From Nitrospinota bacterium (GTDB taxonomy: Bacteria; Nitrospinota; Nitrospinia; Nitrospinales; JACRGP01): 64,000 nt of DNA. The stretch is taken from NCBI GenBank assembly GCA_016207065.1, contig JACQQK010000109.1, positions 1,666 through 65,665 on the forward strand. The letters are read 5' to 3'. Positions 7,672-29,436 of this stretch are shown one piece after another. Both the position numbers and the translations under genes were made by a program. The notes beneath the pieces are model-generated. The model was not told where the DNA came from and searched no databases. It saw only the letters and a list, made by a program, of their open reading frames with translations. The number at the start of each line of letters is the position of its first letter. Within the stretch, counting starts at the first letter, position 1.

Positions 7672-9371
7672 CCCGGGACCCGAAAACCTCCGCCAAACCT
7701 TTTTTTTCCTCCGTAGCGCTTCCGGCGGTCCTCGTGTACATCCTACTGATCGGATATTTGTATTCGTTTTCCAGGTACGGGTTCAACATCTGGGACGAAG
7801 GCGCGTATGCTTACGGTTGCCTGAGAACTTACCTCGGCCAGATCTCCATCAAGGACTTTTACGGTTACCCGCCCGGCCAATACCTGTACGGCGCGCTGTT
7901 TTACAAATTGTTCGGCATCGACGTCCAGAGCCTGAGGATCGGGATCATCGTCCTCACCCCCGCGATGGTCCTGATGGTTTACGGGACGGCCCGCAAACTC
8001 ATGTCCGACCGGTTCGCCGCGCTGGCCGCCCTGCTCATGCTTTCCGCCCCCTCCATGTATTACAGCCGGTATTATACTTTCTTCTGCGTGTCGAGCCTGT
8101 TCTGCCTGGTCGAACTGCTGGAGAAACGGCGGGCGTTGCAACTCTTCATGCTGATCGGGTCCATCATGCTGTCCTTTTATTTCAAAGTCGAAGTCGCCCT
8201 GTTTTCCGCGGCCATCAGCGGCGTCGCGCTGGCCCTTCTGCTTGTCAGGGAACGGACCGGCGGAAAACCGGCCCAGGAAAGACCCTCCGGCCCGGACTCC
8301 TGGGTCTACTCGCTCGCCGCGCGCCCGAGTTCCCGGATCCTGGTTTTTCTCGCGTCCGCCGGGATCGCCCTGTCCCTGGTTTACTTCGTGAAAAACGACA
8401 TCCTCGAACGGTTCATCGACATCGTATTTGGGATCCACCAGGTCTGGGGAAACCCGTTCCCGCAAATTTTCCCCTTGCTCCAACTGTTCGAAACGTTGGG
8501 TCCGCACGAAATGTTCGAGCGGCTTTTGTTTTACGTCCCCGTCTTGGTCTATGTTCTGACCGGCATCCTGCTTCTGGTCCGGTTCCTCGGCAAAACGCAA
8601 GAAAACGGCAAGACCGATTTGTATCTCCTGGCGACCGTGCTGTTCGGCGTCTGCGCCTTCGGCCTGGTGATCTGGCGGGCGGGGTTCGACAACCTGCTCC
8701 GCGCCCTGCCGCCTTTTTACGTCCTGCTGATGTATCTCCTGTCCCTGGCCTGCGAAAAACTTCTGGGACGCCCGGACGGCGCGAAAAAGAAGCCCGCGGT
8801 CCTCCGGCCCAAGAAGCTGGCGGTTGAAGCGGTCATCCTGGTCCTTCCCTTGATCTTTTTTTACGAAATGAACGTCAAGCACGGGTTTTACGCGGGGACG
8901 GTCGGGGCCGTAAACATCGAGACGGCGCGGCTGACCATGGACCGGATCGACGTCTACACCAACCCGTCGGAAGCCAAGTGGATACGGCGGGTGGTGGAAC
9001 TCATCAAGACCCATACCCGGCCGGGAGACCCCGTGCTGGCCCTGCCGCTCAATGCCGGGTTCAATTTCCTCTCCGACCGCCCCAACCCGATCTTCTACGA
9101 CTGGATCCTGCCGGGAATGCTGGACGAAAAGGAAGAGGACAAGTTGGTGGAACAACTCAAGGGGGACCCGCCGAAAATAATCGTCTATGTGGACATCGCC
9201 ATCGACGGGAAAGACGAGCGGCGGCTGATCAATTATGTGCCCAAATTGATCGGTTTCATCGCCGAACGCTACCGGTTGCTGGAAACCGTTGGATTTTTCA
9301 ACGTCCTTGTCCCGGTCGAAACCGCGCCGAGATCCGACGGGCGGGACGGGCCTTTAATAGGCAAATTTTGA
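7668..9371 (+). CDS. Polytopic membrane protein, GT-C-fold glycosyltransferase-like (ArnT/PMT family-39-like)
   Basis: ATG at 7668 overlaps the nagZ stop (ATGA). More than 10 predicted TM helices followed by a soluble C-terminal domain. The upstream 394 aa of track ORF 6486..9371 are Arg/Pro junk in another frame of nagZ. Confidence 0.6.
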   Translation: MTRDPKTSAKPFFSSVALPAVLVYILLIGYLYSFSRYGFNIWDEGAYAYGCLRTYLGQISIKDFYGYPPGQYLYGALFYKLFGIDVQSLRIGIIVLTPAMVLMVYGTARKLMSDRFAALAALLMLSAPSMYYSRYYTFFCVSSLFCLVELLEKRRALQLFMLIGSIMLSFYFKVEVALFSAAISGVALALLLVRERTGGKPAQERPSGPDSWVYSLAARPSSRILVFLASAGIALSLVYFVKNDILERFIDIVFGIHQVWGNPFPQIFPLLQLFETLGPHEMFERLLFYVPVLVYVLTGILLLVRFLGKTQENGKTDLYLLATVLFGVCAFGLVIWRAGFDNLLRALPPFYVLLMYLLSLACEKLLGRPDGAKKKPAVLRPKKLAVEAVILVLPLIFFYEMNVKHGFYAGTVGAVNIETARLTMDRIDVYTNPSEAKWIRRVVELIKTHTRPGDPVLALPLNAGFNFLSDRPNPIFYDWILPGMLDEKEEDKLVEQLKGDPPKIIVYVDIAIDGKDERRLINYVPKLIGFIAERYRLLETVGFFNVLVPVETAPRSDGRDGPLIGKF

Positions 9372-14886: not shown

Positions 14887-17538
14887 ATGATCGAGTTGGA
14901 CAAAACATATAATCCCTCCGCGGTGGAGGAGAAATGGGGCCGGTTCTGGCTTGACAACCGGTTGTTTCACGCCGACGAAAAAAACGGCGGCCAGGCGTTT
15001 TCCATCGTCATACCGCCCCCGAACATCACCGGGTCGTTGCACATCGGGCATGCCTTCAACAACACGTTGCAGGACATCCTCGCCCGCTGGAAACGCATGC
15101 TCGGGTTCAACACCCTGTGGCAACCGGGGACCGACCATGCCGGCATCGCCACCCAGAACGTCGTCGAACGCCATCTGCAAAAGGAAGGGACGAACCGCCA
15201 GGAACTGGGGCGCGAGGAATTCGTCAAGCGCGTCTGGAAGTGGCGCAACGAGTCCGGAGGGACCATCGCTTATCAACTGAAAAAACTGGGTTGCTCCCTG
15301 GACTGGGAACGGGACCGGTTCACGATGGACGAGGGTCTGTCGCGGGCGGTGCGCGAGGTATTCGTCTCCCTTTACGAGGAGGGTCTCATTTACAAGGGCG
15401 ACTATATCATCAACTGGTGTCCGCGTTGCCACACGGCCCTCTCCGACCTGGAGGTCGAATACGAGGAGATCCAGGGGAGCCTGTACCACATCAAGTATCC
15501 GTTCCAGGGAGACGGCGGGTTCCTGGTCGTCGCCACGACCCGGCCCGAAACCATCCTGGGAGACTCCGCCGTCGCCGTCAACCCCGCCGACGAGCGGTAC
15601 AAGGACTTGAAGGAAAAACAAGTGGTCCTGCCCGTCCTGGAGCGGGTCATCCCCGTCATCCAGGACGGTTACGTCGACGTCGCTTTCGGTTCCGGCGCCC
15701 TGAAAGTCACCCCGGCCCACGATCCGAACGACTTCGAGATCGGCAGACGGCACAACCTGCCCGTCATCAAGGTCATGGACCCGGACGGGACGATGAACGA
15801 AAACGCCGGCCCCTACCGCGGGATGGAACGCTACGCCTGCAGAAAAGAGCTGGTGAAAGAACTGGAGGCCAGGGACCTCCTGGTCAAGATAGAGGACTTG
15901 AGGCATTCCGTGGGCCATTGTTACCGGTGCCGGACGGTCATCGAGCCTTACCTTTCCAAGCAATGGTTCGTGAAGGCCGAGCCCCTGGCCCGGCCCGCGA
16001 TCGAGGCGGTGAGAAACGGGACGACCCAAATCATCCCCGGTTTCTGGGAAAACACGTATTTCGAATGGATGGAAAACATCCGCGACTGGTGCATTTCGCG
16101 GCAGATCTGGTGGGGCCACCAAATCCCCGCCTGGAATTGCGGCCAGTGCGGCCGCTTGACCGTGTCGCGCCAGGACCCCGAAGCCTGCCCCCAATGCGGC
16201 AACGCGGACCTCGCGCGGGAGACCGACGTATTGGACACCTGGTTCAGCTCCGCGCTTTGGCCCTTTTCCACCCTGGGGTGGCCGGACCGGACGGAGTCGC
16301 TCCGCCAGTATTATCCGACGTCGGTTTTATGTACCGGGTTCGACATCCTGTTCTTCTGGGTGGCGCGGATGATGATGATGGGCATCAAGTTCATGGGCCA
16401 GGTCCCGTTCCGGCACGTCTACATCCACGCGCTGGTCCGCGACGCGGAAGGCCAGAAGATGAGCAAGACGAAGGGCAACGTCATCGACCCGCTCGTCATG
16501 ATGGAGAAATACGGGACCGACGCCCTGCGCTTCACCCTGGCGGCGTTCGCGGCGCAGGGGAGAGACATCAAGCTCGCCGAGGAACGGATCTCCGGCTACC
16601 GGAACTTTTGCAACAAGCTGTGGAACGCGTCGCGGTTCCTGTTCATGAACCTGGAGGGCTACGCGGGCTCTTGCCGGCTTGAGGACCGCGGGGAACGGTC
16701 CATGGCCGACCGGTGGATATTGAGCCGCGTCAACGAGACCTGCCGCCAGGTCAACCAATGCCTGGAGGACTACAAGTTCAACGAGGCCGCCTCCGCGCTT
16801 TACAAGTTCGTGTGGAACGAGTTCTGCGACTGGTACATCGAGCTTTCGAAAGCCCGTCTGCAAACGCGGACCGGCCCGGAAAAGCGCGCCACGCAGAACG
16901 TCATGGTCCACGTCCTGGAGACCGCGTTGCGGCTACTGCACCCCTTCATGCCGTTCATCACCGAGGAGATCTGGCAACAGCTCCCCGCGGAAGGGAAAAG
17001 CGTCATGATCGCCCCCTTCCCCCGGTACGACGCCTCCCGATACGACGCCGAGGCGGAAACGAACATGAATTTCGTGATGGACGCGGTCTCCGGCGTCCGC
17101 AACATCCGCGGAGAGATGAACCTCAACCCCGGCCTTTCCCTCAACCTGTTGATCAGGACGAAAGACCGGGAGACCGCGGAAACCGTCAACCGCCACGCCG
17201 CGTATATCAAGGAAGCGGGGAAGATCGGCCAGTTGACGGTCGGGCCGTCGGTGACCAAACCGCCGATTTCCGCGTCCTCCGTTTTGGACGGGATGGACAT
17301 TATCGTGCCGCTGGAAGGCCTGATGGATTTCGCCGAGGAGAAGAAGCGGATCGAAAAAGAGTTGAAAAAAATCGAAAAAGACCGCATATTCCTTGAGAGG
17401 AAACTATCCAATCAAGAATTCGTCAAGAACGCTCCTTCCGAAGTCATCGAAAAAGACGAGCAAAGAAGACAGGCCCTCTCGGAAAAACAAGACAAGCTGT
17501 TCGCGCATTTAAAAACCATTGAACAAGCTCTCAAATAA
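14887..17538 (+). CDS. valS: Valine--tRNA ligase
   Basis: 883 aa with PPPNITGSLHIGHA (HIGH), KMSKTKGN (KMSKS) and a C-terminal coiled coil. Confidence 0.97.
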   Translation: MIELDKTYNPSAVEEKWGRFWLDNRLFHADEKNGGQAFSIVIPPPNITGSLHIGHAFNNTLQDILARWKRMLGFNTLWQPGTDHAGIATQNVVERHLQKEGTNRQELGREEFVKRVWKWRNESGGTIAYQLKKLGCSLDWERDRFTMDEGLSRAVREVFVSLYEEGLIYKGDYIINWCPRCHTALSDLEVEYEEIQGSLYHIKYPFQGDGGFLVVATTRPETILGDSAVAVNPADERYKDLKEKQVVLPVLERVIPVIQDGYVDVAFGSGALKVTPAHDPNDFEIGRRHNLPVIKVMDPDGTMNENAGPYRGMERYACRKELVKELEARDLLVKIEDLRHSVGHCYRCRTVIEPYLSKQWFVKAEPLARPAIEAVRNGTTQIIPGFWENTYFEWMENIRDWCISRQIWWGHQIPAWNCGQCGRLTVSRQDPEACPQCGNADLARETDVLDTWFSSALWPFSTLGWPDRTESLRQYYPTSVLCTGFDILFFWVARMMMMGIKFMGQVPFRHVYIHALVRDAEGQKMSKTKGNVIDPLVMMEKYGTDALRFTLAAFAAQGRDIKLAEERISGYRNFCNKLWNASRFLFMNLEGYAGSCRLEDRGERSMADRWILSRVNETCRQVNQCLEDYKFNEAASALYKFVWNEFCDWYIELSKARLQTRTGPEKRATQNVMVHVLETALRLLHPFMPFITEEIWQQLPAEGKSVMIAPFPRYDASRYDAEAETNMNFVMDAVSGVRNIRGEMNLNPGLSLNLLIRTKDRETAETVNRHAAYIKEAGKIGQLTVGPSVTKPPISASSVLDGMDIIVPLEGLMDFAEEKKRIEKELKKIEKDRIFLERKLSNQEFVKNAPSEVIEKDEQRRQALSEKQDKLFAHLKTIEQALK

Positions 17539-23317: not shown

Positions 23318-24334
23318 TTATTGCCCCTTGAACGTGACACGCAGGTATTTTATGAGGTCCGCGAAATCTTGCGGGGGAAAAGTGAGTCCCCAATCCGGCA
23401 TCGAGGGAGATTTGCCCACGCTTTTCCCGCCATGGTAGACCACGTTGTAGAGGTAATCCTCGGGCATCTCGCTCAGCGGCATTTTCGCGTGGACGGCCGG
23501 TTTCGGGTCCAGTCCCGCGGCCCCCGGCCCGTCGCCTTCGCCCTTGAACCCGTGGCACTGCGCGCAATAGGTCTTGTAGACGGCCGCGCCGCGCTCGGGG
23601 TCGGCCTTCTGGAAATACTCGCTCTTCCAGGGCTCGTAATACTTGTAGCCGTCGATGCCCAGCGTCATCAGGTAGCCCACGATATAACGCGCTCCCAGCG
23701 CGCTGAGGTCCGCGAGATATTCGCCGCTGTGCGGCGTGAAATCCTGCGGGTTCGCGGCGAACCGGTACAACCAGTCCGCGGTGTAGCGTTTCCCCGCGGA
23801 GTAAAGCGTCACGCTGATCGGCCCGCCGACTTTCTTGCCGTCTTCCATGATCTGGTGGCAACCGATGCAGGAGTATTTTTTGTAGATGTCGGCGCCGAAA
23901 CCCGCTTCCATCTCCGTGAACCTGGAAAGGTCGAGGGCGTTTTTTTGCACCCTGGGATCGCGGAAGTTCTTCTCCATGTAATCCGCTACCGCCTTGGCAT
24001 CGGATGAGGACAGGGCGGGGTGCTTGGAATCTTTCTTCTTGGAATCCCAGCGGTAACCGTTGGGATAGAGAGCTTCTTCTTTTCCCTCCAACCAGCGGAG
24101 CGCCCAGTCCCGTTGATATTTGACCCCGGACCACATCATGTCCGGGGCGTCGAGGGTGAACTTGGATTTCGGCGGGCCGGAGAACCGATGACAGTTCTCG
24201 CAAGTCTCCTTGACGATTTTCGCGGCCCGGCCCTCGTCGCTTGCGGACGCAAAACCGGCGAAGGAAAGAATCGAGAGGGCGGCAACAACGGCGGCGCACA
24301 ATATTCTTTTGATCGAGATTTTCAACGTATCCAT
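23318..24334 (-). CDS. Secreted triheme c-type cytochrome
   Basis: Signal peptide plus three CxxCH motifs (CENCH, CIGCH, CAQCH). Last gene of the cytochrome operon. Confidence 0.85.
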   Translation of the reverse strand: MDTLKISIKRILCAAVVAALSILSFAGFASASDEGRAAKIVKETCENCHRFSGPPKSKFTLDAPDMMWSGVKYQRDWALRWLEGKEEALYPNGYRWDSKKKDSKHPALSSSDAKAVADYMEKNFRDPRVQKNALDLSRFTEMEAGFGADIYKKYSCIGCHQIMEDGKKVGGPISVTLYSAGKRYTADWLYRFAANPQDFTPHSGEYLADLSALGARYIVGYLMTLGIDGYKYYEPWKSEYFQKADPERGAAVYKTYCAQCHGFKGEGDGPGAAGLDPKPAVHAKMPLSEMPEDYLYNVVYHGGKSVGKSPSMPDWGLTFPPQDFADLIKYLRVTFKGQ

Positions 24335-24376
24335 GGCGTAATCCCTCCCAAAATGTTTTTCAGGCCAGACAAGCGC

Positions 24377-24826
24377 TTACTCGATATTCAACGGGGCGAA
24401 CCGGCGCAAGTATAAAATCAACCGCCAGATTTCATTGTCGCTCAACGCGGCCTTGTGGGCGGGCATGGCCGTCCCCCGGGAGCCGTTTTTGACGATCCAG
24501 AACATCTGCCCGTCCGTGACGTCTTTCATGGTTTCCCGGCAAGTAAAGTTCCTTGGCGGGGGGACGAGCTTCTCCGCCAACCGCCCATTCCCGTCCCCGC
24601 GGAGCCCGTGACAAAGTTTGCACGGGGTCGGCCGGGCTTTCTCGAGATACAACTCCTTCCCCGCCGTTACGTTCCCGGGGGTCCGTGTCAGGGGATTTTG
24701 AGCGCGGGAATACCGCTCCGGAGCCTGGGCGGTATTTCTGGGCTGTGGACATATGCCCGCCGCCTCGACGGCGGGCGAACCGCCGATGACAAGGCAAAAA
24801 GCCGCCGTTGCCGCCCGCCGTTTCAT
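24377..24826 (-). CDS. Monoheme c-type cytochrome (paralog 1)
   Basis: Signal peptide, CKLCHG, and shared C-terminal motif PPPRNFTC..MKDVTDGQMFWIVKNGSRGTAMPA...EIWRLILYLR. Confidence 0.88.
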   Translation of the reverse strand: MKRRAATAAFCLVIGGSPAVEAAGICPQPRNTAQAPERYSRAQNPLTRTPGNVTAGKELYLEKARPTPCKLCHGLRGDGNGRLAEKLVPPPRNFTCRETMKDVTDGQMFWIVKNGSRGTAMPAHKAALSDNEIWRLILYLRRFAPLNIE

Positions 24827-25416
24827 TGCGCGTTAGACAATCCCCGCAGATACAAGACCAATTCCCAGATCTCGTTGTCGTCCAGGAACTTGTAGGACGG
24901 CATGCCGGTCGCCAGGGAACCGTTCTTGATGGTCCAGAACATCTGCCCGTCGGAAACCTCCTTCATGGTCTCCGCGCAGTTGAAGTTGCGGGGTATCGCG
25001 GCGAGTCCCTGGGCCATCATGCCCATGCCGTTGCCGGAGGCGCCGTGACAGATTTTGCAGGCGGTGGGTTGCGCCTGCGCCTGGAACAGAGATTCCCCCT
25101 TCGTCAAGTTCTCCGCGGTGGGTTGCAAAGGGTTGGCCTTGTCGAGATACTCCCTGGGAGCCTGCGGGACGGTGCGCGTCTGCGGGCATAGGCCCTTGCC
25201 CCCCCGGCCCATCCCGTGATGCAACGAGTGGCGGTCGCCATGGTGCGGCCGGCCCTCGTGCATGGCCAGCGTGACGCTAGACTCATTACCGCCCCGGCGC
25301 CAGCGTGGGGCGGCGTCGCCCCCGGCGGCCAGCGCGACGGGTGGAAAGGAACCCCAGCAAAAAAATAAAAACGCCAGGCAACCGGCGGCGGCGTATGGAC
25401 ATGCTCGTTTCGTCAT
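24823..25416 (-). CDS. Monoheme c-type cytochrome (paralog 2) with His-rich linker containing an in-frame repeat element
   Basis: SD GAGGAA upstream of the ATG, signal peptide, CKICHG and the same C-terminal motif. Its stop overlaps the next gene's start (ATGA). Confidence 0.88.
   Translation of the reverse strand: MTKRACPYAAAGCLAFLFFCWGSFPPVALAAGGDAAPRWRRGGNESSVTLAMHEGRPHHGDRHSLHHGMGRGGKGLCPQTRTVPQAPREYLDKANPLQPTAENLTKGESLFQAQAQPTACKICHGASGNGMGMMAQGLAAIPRNFNCAETMKEVSDGQMFWTIKNGSLATGMPSYKFLDDNEIWELVLYLRGLSNAQ
25264..25330. repeat. Copy of the dispersed hairpin modules (CCAGCGTGACGCT.GACTC + TTACCGCCCCGGCGC.AGCG.GGGGCGGCGTCGCC) inside a CDS
   Basis: Aligns with 10625-10643, 4547-4582, 12991-13025 and 61104-61140. 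Translated in-frame as GGDAAPRWRRGGNESSVTLA within cytochrome 24823..25416. Confidence 0.85.
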
Positions 25417-25418
25417 TT

Positions 25419-26012
25419 CTATTCCTCAATGTGTCTTATATAGAGGACCAACTGCCAGATCTGGTCGTCCTCCAGGTTTTTATAGGCCGGCATGTCCGTT
25501 CCCGGAGAGCCGTTTTGAATGATCCAGAACATCTGTCCGTCGGGAATTTTTTTCATCGTCACGTAACAGGTGAAGTTCCTGGGCTGGGGCGTGGTCTGCT
25601 TGAACATGAGTCCCAGGCCATTGCCCGTCAGACCGTGGCAGATTCTGCACGGGGTCGGCCGGGTGTCGAAATGAAACAGGGTCTTGCCGGCGAGAATATT
25701 TCTTTCGCTCGGCTCCAGCGGGTTTTTCATGGTGTAATAGGGATCGGGAGCCTGCGGGGTCCGGCGCGGCTGGGGGCATAACCCGGATATTTCCGGCCCG
25801 CCCTCGTTCAAAGACGGCTCTCCCTTGTGCGCGGCAACCGGCCCGTTTTCATGGCCGGGCGGCGAACTCCTCGGCCCGTCTTGAGCGCTCGCCGGAGACT
25901 TTGCCGGCTCCGCGAAAACGGGACCGGAAAACCAGCAAACCGCCGTCGCGCAAAGGAAACCGGCGGCCATCGGTAAAAAGACGCTCCATAATCTCGAATG
26001 AACGCCGTTCAT
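25419..26012 (-). CDS. Monoheme c-type cytochrome (paralog 3)
   Basis: SD GGGAGGG, signal peptide, CRICHG, and shared motif PQPRNFTC..MKKIPDGQMFWIIQNGSPGTDMPA. Confidence 0.88.
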   Translation of the reverse strand: MNGVHSRLWSVFLPMAAGFLCATAVCWFSGPVFAEPAKSPASAQDGPRSSPPGHENGPVAAHKGEPSLNEGGPEISGLCPQPRRTPQAPDPYYTMKNPLEPSERNILAGKTLFHFDTRPTPCRICHGLTGNGLGLMFKQTTPQPRNFTCYVTMKKIPDGQMFWIIQNGSPGTDMPAYKNLEDDQIWQLVLYIRHIEE

Positions 26013-26052
26013 CGCAAACCCTCCCGCATGAAGTTGCCTGCATTAAAACCGA

Positions 26053-27051
26053 TCAGGGGAGATCGGGCAAAACGACGACGATGGGATCGCCTTCCAGCGC
26101 TTTCAGGAATTCCACCAAGTCCTTTTTCTCCGCGTCCGCCAGGCCCAGCGGGGCCATGAAAGCGCTCTTGTTTTTCGCTTCGCCCCCGCCGCGGTTGTAA
26201 AAATCGACGACCGCCTCGAGCGTCGGCTCGCTCCCGTCGTGCATGTACGGGGCGTTCCTTGTCACATGACGCAGGCCGGGAGTCTTGAAGGCCCCCCTGT
26301 CGTTCTCGTCCTTGGTCACGTTGTAGCGCCCGAGGTCCTCCTTCAACGGCCCCGCTTGTTTCACGCCCAGGTTGTGGAACTGGCTGTCGGTGAACGCCGG
26401 ACCGTTGTGGCAGATGGAGCACTTGGCCTTCCCGAAGAACAGCCCCATCCCCTTGACGGCGGAGGCGGACATGGCCTTCTTGTCGCCTTTCCAGTACTTG
26501 TCGTAGGGAGAATTTTTCGAAACCACGGCGCGTTCGTACGTGGCGATGGCCCTGGCGATGTTTTCGGAGGAGATCCCCGATTCGCCAAAAACTTTTTTGA
26601 ACATGTGGACGTAGCCGGAGACCGCTTTCAGTTCCTTGACCAGGTCGCCGAGGGGCTGGTTCATCTCGCCCGCCGCCTGGATGGGGCCGAGGGCCTGTTC
26701 CTCCAGCGTTTTGGCCCGGCCGTCCCAGAACTGCGACTCGAAATACCCGCTGTTGACGATCGTAGGCGTGTGACGTCCAAGCTCCTTCTGGCCGTTGCCC
26801 AAGGCCCTCGGCAAGCCGTCGCCGAAACCGAGGCCGGGGTTGTGGCACGTGGCGCAACTGATCCAGTTGCTCCCGGACAAGCGCGGATCGAAATAAAGGG
26901 CCTTGCCCAACTCCTCCTTGTCCTTCGACCAGGGGTTGTCCGCCGGGTGTTTCATTTCCGGGAGCGGCTGGTAAAAAGACTCTTCGGCCGGGGCCTGACC
27001 GGCAAGCAGGAATGAAACCAGGAACGCAAATAGAGTGGTCGCTATCTTCAT
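26053..27051 (-). CDS. Di-heme cytochrome c peroxidase (CCP/MauG family)
   Basis: Signal peptide, CATCHNPGLGFGDG and CSICHNGPAFTD heme motifs, ...TPGLRHVTRNAPYMHDGS..., 332 aa. Confidence 0.92.
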   Translation of the reverse strand: MKIATTLFAFLVSFLLAGQAPAEESFYQPLPEMKHPADNPWSKDKEELGKALYFDPRLSGSNWISCATCHNPGLGFGDGLPRALGNGQKELGRHTPTIVNSGYFESQFWDGRAKTLEEQALGPIQAAGEMNQPLGDLVKELKAVSGYVHMFKKVFGESGISSENIARAIATYERAVVSKNSPYDKYWKGDKKAMSASAVKGMGLFFGKAKCSICHNGPAFTDSQFHNLGVKQAGPLKEDLGRYNVTKDENDRGAFKTPGLRHVTRNAPYMHDGSEPTLEAVVDFYNRGGGEAKNKSAFMAPLGLADAEKKDLVEFLKALEGDPIVVVLPDLP

Positions 27052-27093
27052 GGGGCGCTCTCCTTCACTTGGAACGGTTGCTCGATTACCGCT

Positions 27094-28302
27094 TTAAAAA
27101 GCCAGGACAAACCCCGCTACCCCCGTATGGGTTTCTTGCGGATGGTTGAAACTTGTTTCTTGCAGGTCGCCGGTGACCTCGAACATGACTTTAAAGTTGC
27201 GCATGATGTAATAGGAGATATTGCCGGTCAACGTTTCCGCGTTCAATACCGGTCTCCCATAAACGCGCGCGTTGTTGTACAAAACCGACAGGATCCAATC
27301 CTCCTTGAACGGATAGGTCACGCCGCCCAAGGCGCCCCAGGAATCGACCCGCCGCGGGACGGAGGCGGAAAAGCCGGGATTGTCGTCCTCCCCGATCAGG
27401 AAATTGCCCCAGACTTTGAAGTCGCTGAACAGGGTGAAAGTGAAATCCGGCCCGGCGCGAAAAAATTCGTTGCGGACGTTGGCGGCGTTGTTCTCGCGCC
27501 CGCTGTAGCCGTAGAACCCGACCCGTTGTTCTCCATATCCCGCCAGAATCCTGCCGTAGAAGTCTTTAAAATTGTCCGAATCGAAGTTCCGGTCGCTGTT
27601 GGCGACGCCGATGCCGTTGCCGTTGACCGCCGCTCCCCAGATCCCCAGGGACAGGTCCGCGGCGGCGGCGAAATTATAGGATATCTCCGCGATCCGGTCG
27701 TAGGTGAGCCGGAACCCGCTGTCGCTGATCGCGGTGACGTAATAAGTGAAGTCCTGAAACGTCAGACGGTGCTCCCGGGGAAAAACGATGTCCATCAACT
27801 GGAACTGGCCCACGCGGACATCCAGGTCGGCGTTTTTGTAGATGTTGTTGAAGTACAGGAAAGCGTCCTCCACGCCGGCAATGTCCCCGTTCTCGGCGGC
27901 CAAGAAAGTAAAATAATAGGCGATGTCTTTTTTCAACGGGGCTCCGGATATGATTTTGATAAGCGACGGGGCCTCCAAATCCGTGTGCGTCCGGGTGTCG
28001 GCGCGGGCCCGGAAGAACGATTCCGCGCGCACCGCCAGGGGAAGGGACGGCAGGAGCAACAGCTTTTCGTCGCCCACCTTGGCCCCATGGGCGGCCATGT
28101 CCTCGTCGGGAAGCTGGTAGCCGTTGGCCGCGAATTGTTCTCCGAAACCGTTGAGCTTCGGGAATCCGACGTGGCATACCACGCAACTCAGGTTATATCT
28201 GCGCGCGAAAGCCGGGATCGCCTCGGCAACTTCCGTAGTTGCGGCAAACAGCAAGAGCGCTAATAAAGTCAAAACAAAAAAAGCGGTTTTACGGCTTGTC
28301 AT
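27094..28302 (-). CDS. Fused monoheme cytochrome c / outer-membrane beta-barrel porin (Cyc2/Cyt572-like architecture)
   Basis: Start at ATG 28302 (GGGAGAG upstream). Signal peptide MTSRKTAFFVLTLLALLLFAATTEVAEA. Single CVVCH 12 residues into the mature protein. About 360 aa of alternating aromatic/Gly-rich strands, and an OMP-type C-terminus GVAGFVLAF. Confidence 0.7.
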   Translation of the reverse strand: MTSRKTAFFVLTLLALLLFAATTEVAEAIPAFARRYNLSCVVCHVGFPKLNGFGEQFAANGYQLPDEDMAAHGAKVGDEKLLLLPSLPLAVRAESFFRARADTRTHTDLEAPSLIKIISGAPLKKDIAYYFTFLAAENGDIAGVEDAFLYFNNIYKNADLDVRVGQFQLMDIVFPREHRLTFQDFTYYVTAISDSGFRLTYDRIAEISYNFAAAADLSLGIWGAAVNGNGIGVANSDRNFDSDNFKDFYGRILAGYGEQRVGFYGYSGRENNAANVRNEFFRAGPDFTFTLFSDFKVWGNFLIGEDDNPGFSASVPRRVDSWGALGGVTYPFKEDWILSVLYNNARVYGRPVLNAETLTGNISYYIMRNFKVMFEVTGDLQETSFNHPQETHTGVAGFVLAF

Positions 28303-28319
28303 GTCTCTCCCTGTTCTAG

Positions 28320-28757
28320 TCATTTCCCCGCGAAGGCGCGGATAAATTGAATCGCGTTCCAGCCTTCCTCCTCGGTGATGGCCGTGCCCACCCGGACCGG
28401 CATGCCCGTCCCCGGGCTTCCGTTTCTCAGGACCCACATGAGTTCCCCATCGGTCCGTAGTTTCTGCCATTTCCCGTCGGTGAAATCCCGCGGGGCGTGT
28501 CCCGGAAAAACGGCGCCCTTGCCGTCCATGCCGTGACAGGTCACGCACAGCCCTTTCCCGAAATAGATTTTCCGGCCCTCCTCGGTCCGTTCCGGAGTCG
28601 CGGGGAAGGGGCTTTCCATTTCCTGGACTTGTTCAAGTATTTCCCTTGGGACCCGCGGCTCGTAGACGTCTTTGTGGAACGCCCACGCCTCCCCCGCGGC
28701 TAAAACAAGGGAAACCGCCAAAGCGGCCGTTAATTTTTTATCGACTCGATCAAGCAT
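28320..28757 (-). CDS. Monoheme c-type cytochrome (paralog 4)
   Basis: Start at ATG 28757 (MLDRVDKKLTAALAVSLVLAAGEAWA signal). CVTCHG and motif DGELMWVLRNGSPGTGMPV shared with the three tandem paralogs. Confidence 0.85.
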   Translation of the reverse strand: MLDRVDKKLTAALAVSLVLAAGEAWAFHKDVYEPRVPREILEQVQEMESPFPATPERTEEGRKIYFGKGLCVTCHGMDGKGAVFPGHAPRDFTDGKWQKLRTDGELMWVLRNGSPGTGMPVRVGTAITEEEGWNAIQFIRAFAGK

Positions 28758-28833: not shown

Positions 28834-29436
28834 TTACTTCTTTTTCTTCTCCATCGGTTTGTCCATGGGCTTCTCCATGGGTTTGCCCTTGGCGCTTTCG
28901 GCGATCTCCTTGCCGATTTTACCATGCAGGGATTCCCAATGGCCAACGGACTGGGCGATGCCCACCGTGCCGTCGGGGATGGGCGCGTCCTTCGGCCACA
29001 AGTGAAAAATGATGCCGTCGGTATTCGACACGTGGTCCGCCAGGCTCTTTTGCTCCTTGGGGTCGGAGGGGTTCATGATGACGACGCGTCCGGTCGCGAT
29101 CTCGGCCTGGTGGTCATGCCAGTTCTGCATGTGGGACCACTTGGGGATGACCGAACGGGCGAGCTTCTTGGAGACCATGTATTCCACCTCGGTCATGCGG
29201 GCGTTGGGCTCCGTGGACTCGAACAGGATGCATTGGATGATGTCGTCGTTGATCGGTTTGCAATAATGATGGAAGGGGCCCATGATCTCGCCGTCCATGA
29301 CGTGGGGGGCGGTGACGTGGATGGTGTAACCGCTCAAGGGGTTCGGGGGGACGTCGCCGGCAAAGGCGGGAGCTACCAGGAAACCAACCAGGAGCAGAGC
29401 GGACATGAACAGCCGGGCAATCTGTTTCGCGAGCAT
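28834..29436 (-). CDS. Secreted DUF1264-family protein with Met/Lys-rich C-terminal repeats
   Basis: SD AGGAGA and a signal peptide. ...GPFHHYCKPINDDIIQCILFESTEPNARMTEVEYMVS...WHDHQ... matches my memory of the DUF1264 (OBAP-like) core. The tail is KGKPMEKPMDKPMEKKKK. Confidence 0.65.
   Translation of the reverse strand: MLAKQIARLFMSALLLVGFLVAPAFAGDVPPNPLSGYTIHVTAPHVMDGEIMGPFHHYCKPINDDIIQCILFESTEPNARMTEVEYMVSKKLARSVIPKWSHMQNWHDHQAEIATGRVVIMNPSDPKEQKSLADHVSNTDGIIFHLWPKDAPIPDGTVGIAQSVGHWESLHGKIGKEIAESAKGKPMEKPMDKPMEKKKK

Follow-up and report, generated by a model that had tools for sequence, protein, structure and literature searches.

A candidate Cyc2-type fused cytochrome–porin in a conserved cytochrome operon of Nitrospinota

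The window analyzed here, a 64,000-nucleotide stretch of a Nitrospinota metagenome-assembled genome (MAG; GCA_016207065.1, contig JACQQK010000109.1), carries on its minus strand a gene for a candidate Cyc2-type fused cytochrome–porin at 27094..28302 (coordinates including the stop codon, 27094-27096). According to the translation, the 402-residue precursor opens with MTSRKTAFFVLTLLALLLFAATTEVAEA, the mature part then starts with IPAFARRYNLSCVVCHVGFPKLNGFGEQF, and the C-terminal end is ...GFVLAF, with Phe as the last residue. The mature N-terminus reads IPAFARRYNLSCVVCH…PKL. The identical protein in NCBI, HY579_07620, is labelled 'hypothetical', and Pfam, NCBIfam and PDB sequence searches with the protein returned no match. 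The start codon, the ATG at 28302, sits 17 nucleotides past the stop codon of an upstream cytochrome c gene and is preceded by GGGAGAG at positions -9..-3; all homologues begin at the matching position. A longer open reading frame of 484 codons starting from GTG (27094..28548) was rejected. Because its 82-residue, Arg/Gly/His-rich extension overlaps, in another frame, the cytochrome c gene upstream (28320..28757) at its 3' end and is absent from all homologues, the 402-residue form is the gene. The first-pass annotation, made by a model from the sequence, had dismissed this extension as junk and had pointed to the ATG and the GGGAGAG upstream of it, and both readings held. The signal peptide that it had proposed could likewise be read from the sequence: residues 1-28 (28219..28302, minus strand) consist of a positively charged n-region (MTSRK), a hydrophobic core and A-E-A before the cleavage site, and an AxA directly ahead of [ILV]PxFAR is kept throughout the family alignment.

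Downstream of the signal peptide, residues 29-88 hold a heme module and a linker. The heme c module, residues 29-66 (28105..28218, minus strand; IPAFARRY-NLS-CVVCH-VGF-PKL...NGY), was delimited by conservation, motif and profile and has a mean column conservation of 0.71. Its CVVCH (residues 40-44; 28171..28185, minus strand) is the sole CxxCH of the protein and occupies mature residues 12-16, exactly where the first-pass annotation had placed it. Cyc2 has been defined as proteins of at least 365 residues with a signal peptide, one CXXCH only and a 16-strand porin; the motif AXPXFAR[Q/K][T/Y] before the CXXCH has been called unique to Cyc2, which also has a PXL whose Pro lies four residues past the CXXCH (Keffer et al. 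2021). The window protein, at 402 residues, is within the length range. Its A-I-P-A-F-A-R-R-Y, followed by NLS and the first Cys, fits the Cyc2 motif at eight of nine signature positions and in its spacing, and His44 is followed by V-G-F and then by P48-K-L50, which gives the PXL. The register is also equal to that of A. ferrooxidans Cyc2, in which the mature N-terminus obtained by Edman sequencing is LPSFARQ and the heme ligand carries the number His16; the mature window protein starts with IPAFARR, and its ligand is again mature His16.

A first protein search yielded 323 homologues, all lacking Pfam domains. In species-representative genomes, there are at least 566 loci with a homologue, and these belong to Nitrospinota, Ignavibacteria/Melioribacter, Bacteroidota, Zixibacteria, KSB1, Calditrichota, Krumholzibacteriota, Gemmatimonadota and Acidobacteriota; the protein search also returned Nitrospirota homologues 41-44% identical to the window protein. 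Exactly one CxxCH was present in each of the 113 full-length relatives. P30, R34, C40, C43, H44 and P48 were invariant among them, and F32, A33 and L50 were conserved in at least 97% (L50 in 110 of 113). The heme motif is hence not a chance occurrence. Invariant residues in the family also include R92, K116, K246, Y130, Y132, Y201 and Y266. The terminal Phe remarked upon in the first-pass annotation is a family trait as well, since 112 of the 113 relatives end in Phe or Tyr. A reading of the protein as one of a family of non-heme porins without conserved Cys and His, which the same annotation had considered, was rejected, as the CxxCH is present in every one of the relatives.

The relation to classical Cyc2 was approached through profiles. 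A 40-residue probe built around the published LPSFARQ N-terminus, with the rest of its sequence approximate, returned only 11 short proteobacterial N-terminal fragments of the FARQTG type. Against the profile of these 11 N-termini, the window protein reached 47.4 bits (per-sequence E 8e-17), and the 30 family members tested all scored 34-50 bits; the profile matches 4,395 representative clusters among 1.84 billion proteins. No isolate name was found among the 20 clusters that were looked up, a profile of 21 full-length FARQTG-type proteins gave no isolate-named matches (the most specific label being Acidiferrobacteraceae), and no rus operon was present around the two FARQTG-type matches examined for gene context. 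Plasmids were the sole source of named homologues, in Ralstonia, Caballeronia and Acidiphilium and as a plasmid copy in A. ferrooxidans. When the family was aligned at full length with these 21 proteins (430-485 residues) in hhalign, the probability was 99.2% and E 1.6e-19. In an unbiased tblastn search of 7.3 Gb of plasmids with the window protein as the query, significant matches (E up to 1e-3) were confined to residues 29-68. These were 47-50% identical, reached E 6e-4 and were located in Ralstonia solanacearum megaplasmids and in Caballeronia; the plasmid genes align over their full length with the FARQTG-type Cyc2-like protein P0231, and weaker matches were obtained to the same genes in Paraburkholderia, Ideonella and Methylocystis. 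Ralstonia is a genus rich in Cyc2 homologues (Keffer et al.). The Cyc2 assignment, which the first-pass annotation had been unable to establish, is thus supported by the motif, the A. ferrooxidans register, the 47-bit profile score and the plasmid tblastn matches, with sequence homology to FARQTG-type Cyc2 apparently confined to the heme module of about 40 residues.

The remainder of the protein, residues 89-402 (27097..28038, minus strand), is predicted by AlphaFold2, DSSP and Foldseek to be a 16-strand beta-barrel porin, and its ...GFVLAF end resembles a beta-signal. The AlphaFold2 model, built with a 30-sequence alignment, had a pLDDT (predicted local distance difference test) of 75 and a pTM (predicted template modelling score) of 0.72, with 16 DSSP strands between residues 89 and 401. 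Hence, the single-heme N-terminus followed by a barrel, as proposed in the first-pass annotation, stood, while the size given there for the barrel, about 360 residues, did not: the barrel proper comprises about 313 residues. In the model, the periplasmic turns are short (2-8 residues) and the external loops longer, which is the standard porin topology. The top Foldseek matches in the PDB were all 16-strand general porins (E 3e-12 to 1e-8), namely V. cholerae OmpT, OmpU, VhChiP, BpsOmp38, Omp32, PorB and OmpF, with DcaP also among the best; target-normalized TM-scores (template modelling scores) of the porin matches were 0.55-0.70. Residues 20-44, with the heme segment, and the linker at residues 69-86 had a pLDDT below 50, and the model was built without heme, so the heme segment is unplaced. 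An AlphaFold2 model of a FARQTG-type protein likewise had 16 main strands, with a long loop between strands 5 and 6 and short helices at the FAR motif and past the PxL, and its best PDB matches were the same as those of the window model (OmpT, OmpU, VhChiP, BpsOmp38 and DcaP).

Conservation is unevenly distributed over the barrel. The best-conserved parts are strands 3-5 and loops L2, L3 and L4 (0.68-0.79), which carry the invariant E137, E145, D146, D171, R176, E177, R179, D184, D241 and K246; conservation of the external loops L1 and L5-L8 is 0.29-0.38. The loop between strands 5 and 6, in the L3 position of general porins (residues 169-200; 27703..27798, minus strand), has a conservation of 0.68 and the invariant residues D171, R176, E177, R179, L180 and D184; its motifs served as the patterns in the scan of species-representative genomes. 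Loop L4 (residues 227-246; 27565..27624, minus strand; NGNGIG...NFDSDxFK) has a conservation of 0.72, with N227, G228, N229, G230, D241 and K246 invariant. External loops of the L2-L4 type are normally variable, and L3 of general porins folds into the lumen. By analogy, the loop in the L3 position probably acts inside the pore, the conservation of L4 suggests that this loop has a function, and the conserved charged loops may form a cation-handling constriction in the pore.

Seven genes on the minus strand follow one another (23318..28757) with -4 to 42 nucleotides between them; the Cyc2-like gene is the second, and each of the seven products has a signal peptide and one or more heme c sites. 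The first gene (28320..28757) encodes a 145-residue monoheme cytochrome c with a signal peptide and a CVTCH (Pfam Cytochrome_CBB3 and Cytochrom_C), and its best NCBIfam match is cytochrome579 (NF033864; E 4.7e-24, profile positions 5-138 of 179). As the score of 85 bits is below the equivalog cutoff of 280, this Cyt579-like protein is, judged by its profile score, a homologue and not an orthologue of Leptospirillum Cyt579. The gene that comes after the cytochrome–porin gene (26053..27051, minus strand) encodes a 332-residue di-heme bacterial cytochrome c peroxidase with a signal peptide and two CxxCH (Pfam CCP_MauG, 190 bits), the nearest PDB sequences of which are MacA and CcpA of Geobacter together with peroxidases of Nitrosomonas and Pseudomonas (E 3e-62 to 1e-55). 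It is followed on the same strand by three monoheme cytochromes c identified with Pfam, paralogues A (197 residues; 25419..26012), B (197 residues; 24823..25416) and C (149 residues; 24377..24826), which are mutually 45-55% identical; A is 27-33% identical to the Cyt579-like protein. The last gene of the operon (23318..24334, minus strand) encodes a 338-residue triheme cytochrome c with a signal peptide, three CxxCH and Pfam support. Upstream of the run, a gene for a secreted DUF1264 protein (28834..29436, minus strand; Pfam DUF1264) is of uncertain operon membership. The 5.4-kb operon holds 10 of the 11 CxxCH motifs in open reading frames of at least 100 codons in the window; the one left over, CPRCH at 15418, belongs to the gene for valyl-tRNA synthetase. 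The remainder of the window consists of housekeeping and cell-envelope genes, and neither a nitrite oxidoreductase nor a decaheme gene is present in it.

Six other Nitrospinota genomes share the locus, with Cyc2-like proteins 57-68% identical to that of the window. The shared order is an SBF transporter, a TehB-like methyltransferase, Lcl_C, in some cases DUF1264, the Cyt579-like gene, the Cyc2-like gene, and two to six cytochromes c. Syntenic genomes include the complete genome of the nitrite oxidizer Ca. Nitrohelix vancouverensis (CP048620.1, Cyc2-like protein 58% identical) and the groundwater Nitrospinae genome GCA_002796165. All six syntenic loci have a Cyt579-like gene (61-72% identity) upstream of the Cyc2-like one; the two are directly adjacent in three, and a single MBL-rhodanese gene lies between them in the other three. 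Since the gene order is common to the six other genomes, the locus that combines a Cyt579-like protein, a heme porin and small cytochromes is old and has been passed on vertically within Nitrospinota. The triheme cytochrome c is also found in L085 (65% identity). Apart from the window, only L087/L088 have the peroxidase at this position (L087:8248-9249, 70% identical), and it is absent from five of the seven syntenic loci; where present, it may couple the cytochrome pool to H2O2 removal. The DUF1264 gene is kept at the upstream position in L006, L085, L091 and L092 (71-75% identity). The inserted gene, which is absent from the window, encodes a cytoplasmic, persulfide-dioxygenase-like protein of 471-490 residues without a signal peptide, in which an MBL fold and a double rhodanese are combined (L002:3613-5085, L006:6546-7961 and L092:4522-5949).

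A different context was observed in the Nitrospinales MAGs L003, L004, L005, L007 and L008, where homologues 51-58% identical to the window protein have no adjacent cytochromes; these cytochrome-free homologues may be a paralogue. In L003, L004, L005 and L008, the homologue is followed by a conserved open reading frame of 248-266 codons without a Pfam match, and in L005 it is preceded by a protoglobin-PsiE fusion. The homologues L005, L006 and L008 (52-58% identical to the window protein) come from three MAGs of the Oslofjord tunnel, OFTM44, OFTM6 and OFTM191.

Outside Nitrospinota, at least 60 of 72 loci (L009-L080) have a same-strand cytochrome gene of about 440-470 codons directly preceding the Cyc2-like gene. 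The stop and start codons of the two genes often overlap (for example L012:6685-8001 / 7998-9161), and Melioribacter roseus provides another example of the pair (L070:6639-7985 and L070:7998-9182). This partner has four to five CxxCH in its N-terminal half, with weak Pfam matches to Cytochrome_C554, C7 and NapC/NirT, and a C-terminal half of about 220 residues with no Pfam match. The multiheme partner and the Cyc2-like gene are a conserved two-gene module of FCB-group phyla, and no description of this module was found in the literature searched.

Like the window protein, the Cyc2 of A. ferrooxidans and Mariprofundus Cyc2PV-1 (McAllister 2020, Keffer 2021) have a signal peptide, xPxFAR, five residues, CxxCH, three residues and PxL, as well as one heme, a 16-strand porin, an aromatic C-terminus, a length above 365 residues and adjacent genes for small periplasmic cytochromes c. 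Classical Cyc2 differs in having Q-T in the signature where the window protein has R-Y, and in being found in iron oxidizers, whereas the phylum of the window is known for nitrite oxidation; the FARQTG-type proteins are also longer than the 402-residue window protein (430-485 residues) and have a near-invariant Met where the window family has an invariant Arg. In Leptospirillum, the outer-membrane Cyt572, which belongs to Cyc2 Cluster 3, has the periplasmic Cyt579 as its partner, and here too a heme protein of the predicted outer-membrane type is paired with a Cyt579-family cytochrome. Cyt572, compared here by description only, has an unusual heme and works at acid pH. MtoAB, PioAB and MtrAB also transfer electrons across the outer membrane through a barrel, but they employ a separate decaheme cytochrome in a 26-strand barrel instead of one fused heme and 16 strands. 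The general 16-strand porins (OmpF/OmpC, OmpT/OmpU, Omp32 and PorB) have the same fold and the long loop between strands 5 and 6, but no heme module and no sequence similarity to the window protein, which matches no Pfam porin family.

Taken together, we consider it very probable that the window protein is a heme-capped outer-membrane porin. Slightly better than even, in our judgement, is the fuller reading that it is a Cyc2-type fused cytochrome–porin acting as an outer-membrane electron port, which would oxidize dissolved Fe(II) and feed the co-transcribed cytochromes; for Fe(II) oxidation as the physiological role, the chances appear evenly balanced. One representative of each Cyc2 cluster oxidizes Fe(II) in vitro. 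Keffer et al. argue that a cytochrome domain of about 20 Å closes the barrel at its periplasmic end, so that Fe2+ has to move into the narrow pore, and that the electron is handed on to a carrier in the periplasm. The same logic would apply to the window protein because the N-terminus of a 16-strand porin is periplasmic. That the protein resides in the outer membrane, that heme is attached and where it sits, which way electrons flow and that Fe(II) is the substrate are all predictions from these comparisons. Under this proposal, the precursor would be exported by Sec, after which the Ccm system would attach one heme c at Cys40/Cys43, and His44 would be its proximal ligand. The C-terminal 313 or so residues would insert into the outer membrane as a 16-strand barrel, and the heme module of about 40 residues would stay at its periplasmic mouth. 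Dissolved Fe(II) would enter the pore from outside and be oxidized by the heme. The electron would then pass to the Cyt579-like protein, on to the three paralogues and the triheme cytochrome, and finally to a terminal oxidase encoded elsewhere. Another possible acceptor in this genome would be the di-heme peroxidase of the operon, by which H2O2, dangerous in the presence of Fe(II), would be removed.

Several observations weigh against this proposal. The window protein has Arg where the Cyc2 signature has [Q/K], and the strict regular expression behind the published tree would reject the sequence; at this position, the 113 relatives have R in 76 cases, K in 28, N in 7 and Q in 2. No Met or His that might be the sixth heme ligand is conserved among the full-length relatives, and the near-invariant Met of the FARQTG type (PLSxMxQ, strand 1) aligns with the invariant Arg92, so heme ligation may differ from that in FARQTG-type Cyc2. 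The FARQTG reference set itself consists of unnamed metagenome proteins and of Ralstonia, Caballeronia and Acidiphilium homologues, not of biochemically verified Cyc2. A profile comparison restricted to the barrels (103 versus 123 sequences) gave a score of 19.6 and E 0.12, which lies within the range of ten block-shuffled controls (17-25.6; reversed control 15.7), and the window family and FARQTG-type Cyc2 could share only the heme module. Detectable sequence homology between the barrels was rejected, as a nominal E of 0.004 obtained with smaller alignments was lost with the 103 and 123 sequences and the controls. Because the barrel profiles did no better than shuffled ones, it is architecture alone that argues for common descent of the barrels; such a lack of detectable similarity is not unusual, since the published Cyc2 clusters are mutually only 17-23% identical. 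No terminal oxidase is encoded in the window. To our knowledge, neither the nitrite oxidizers nor the sister-clade FCB taxa (such as Ignavibacteria and Bacteroidota) that carry the gene are known as iron oxidizers. The function of distant Cyc2 homologues has also been said to need verification (Keffer et al.).

An alternative that we regard as unlikely but worth setting out is that the family is a separate, widespread lineage of heme-capped porins. Such a lineage would share only the 40-residue heme module with Cyc2, would ligate its heme differently, would have its own invariant charged L3 and L4, and would be an ancestral Nitrospinota electron port working with Cyt579-like cytochromes. If this were the case, nitrite oxidizers such as Nitrohelix could respire on, or exchange electrons with, extracellular iron.

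Electrons might also flow outward or both ways through the same molecule, to extracellular Fe(III), Mn(IV), humics or partner cells, an option that we find distinctly improbable for the window protein. It derives its appeal from the non-Nitrospinota homologues, at least 60 of 72 of which are translationally coupled to a tetra-/pentaheme cytochrome of about 450 residues, including that of the known Fe(III) reducer Melioribacter roseus (L070), and from FeGenie surveys, in which Ignavibacteriales and Zixibacteria MAGs are reported to carry genes for iron oxidation alongside genes for iron reduction. The Nitrospinota loci, however, are without a multiheme partner and have as neighbours cbb3-type/class I monoheme cytochromes typical of aerobic chains, and each biochemically tested Cyc2 takes electrons from Fe(II). 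A little more doubtful still is another soluble donor in place of Fe(II), for instance Mn(II), the donor suggested for Ca. Manganitrophus Cyc2. The core genes of the Mn(II)-oxidizing Ca. Manganitrophaceae include Cyc2 homologues, which are proposed Mn oxidases there, the Nitrospirota proteins reach the 41-44% identity given above, and the invariant acidic residues of L3 and L4 would bind any divalent cation; yet no Cyc2 is known to oxidize Mn(II), the potential of the Mn(III)/Mn(II) couple lies very high for a c-type heme, and the PCC_1 partner proposed in Manganitrophus is absent at the window locus. Very improbable, finally, is a protein that is mainly a substrate or ion porin with a structural, regulatory or sensory heme, or with one for periplasmic peroxide defence: the fold is that of general diffusion porins, the peroxidase adjoins the gene in two genomes and the lack of a conserved sixth ligand recalls some sensor and peroxidatic hemes, but the peroxidase is missing from five of seven syntenic loci, the invariant neighbours are electron carriers, and at least 113 relatives, spread over many phyla, keep the heme motif unchanged.

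No genetic marker of microbial iron oxidation is used more widely than Cyc2, the function of which outside the classical iron oxidizers is unverified. Because the locus is conserved and syntenic in Ca. Nitrohelix vancouverensis, it makes testable the question of whether Nitrospinota, key marine nitrite oxidizers, draw electrons from Fe(II) via an outer-membrane heme pore and pass them to periplasmic cytochromes dedicated to this. If they do, the marine nitrogen and iron cycles are linked; if they do not, surveys based on the Cyc2 marker overcount iron oxidizers. Cyc2-like genes are already on record in Nitrospinota. A cyc2 homologue was reported earlier in a Nitrospinae bin from vent chimneys, and FeGenie calls have been published for eight Nitrospinota MAGs and for 'several' Nitrospinaceae and UBA8639 MAGs (Oslofjord tunnel), with cyc2 called in Nitrospinaceae MAGs from the study set of L005, L006 and L008. 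Cyc2 homologues have also been reported in Krumholzibacteria, in nitrifying Nitrospirales and in the Mn-oxidizing Ca. Manganitrophaceae, and FeGenie surveys found iron-oxidation genes, at those sites dominantly Cyc2 Cluster 3, in Zixibacteria and Ignavibacteriales; cyc2 calls at the DeMMO sites, the source of L045, were mostly Cluster 3. The FeGenie cyc2-like genes of Nitrospinaceae, Nitrospirota, Krumholzibacteria, Zixibacteria and Ignavibacteriales MAGs come from the same taxa as the relatives described here. Membership of the window protein in Cluster 3 seems likely. The earlier reports give presence or absence of these genes and describe no operon, synteny or biochemistry. New here are the conserved cytochrome operon, shared with an enriched nitrite oxidizer with a complete genome, the confinement of homology with classical Cyc2 to the heme module, and the conserved pore loops.

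In the course of the plasmid comparisons, a FARQTG-type Cyc2 homologue with FAAQ instead of FARQ was also observed on plasmid CP084173.1 of A. ferrooxidans YQ-N3 (L089:5890-7257), adjoining a transposase and a c-type cytochrome. Its match statistics were equal to those of the Acidiphilium cryptum JF-5 plasmid gene NC_009469.1:1384-2637, which suggests a recent transfer or a mis-assigned plasmid.

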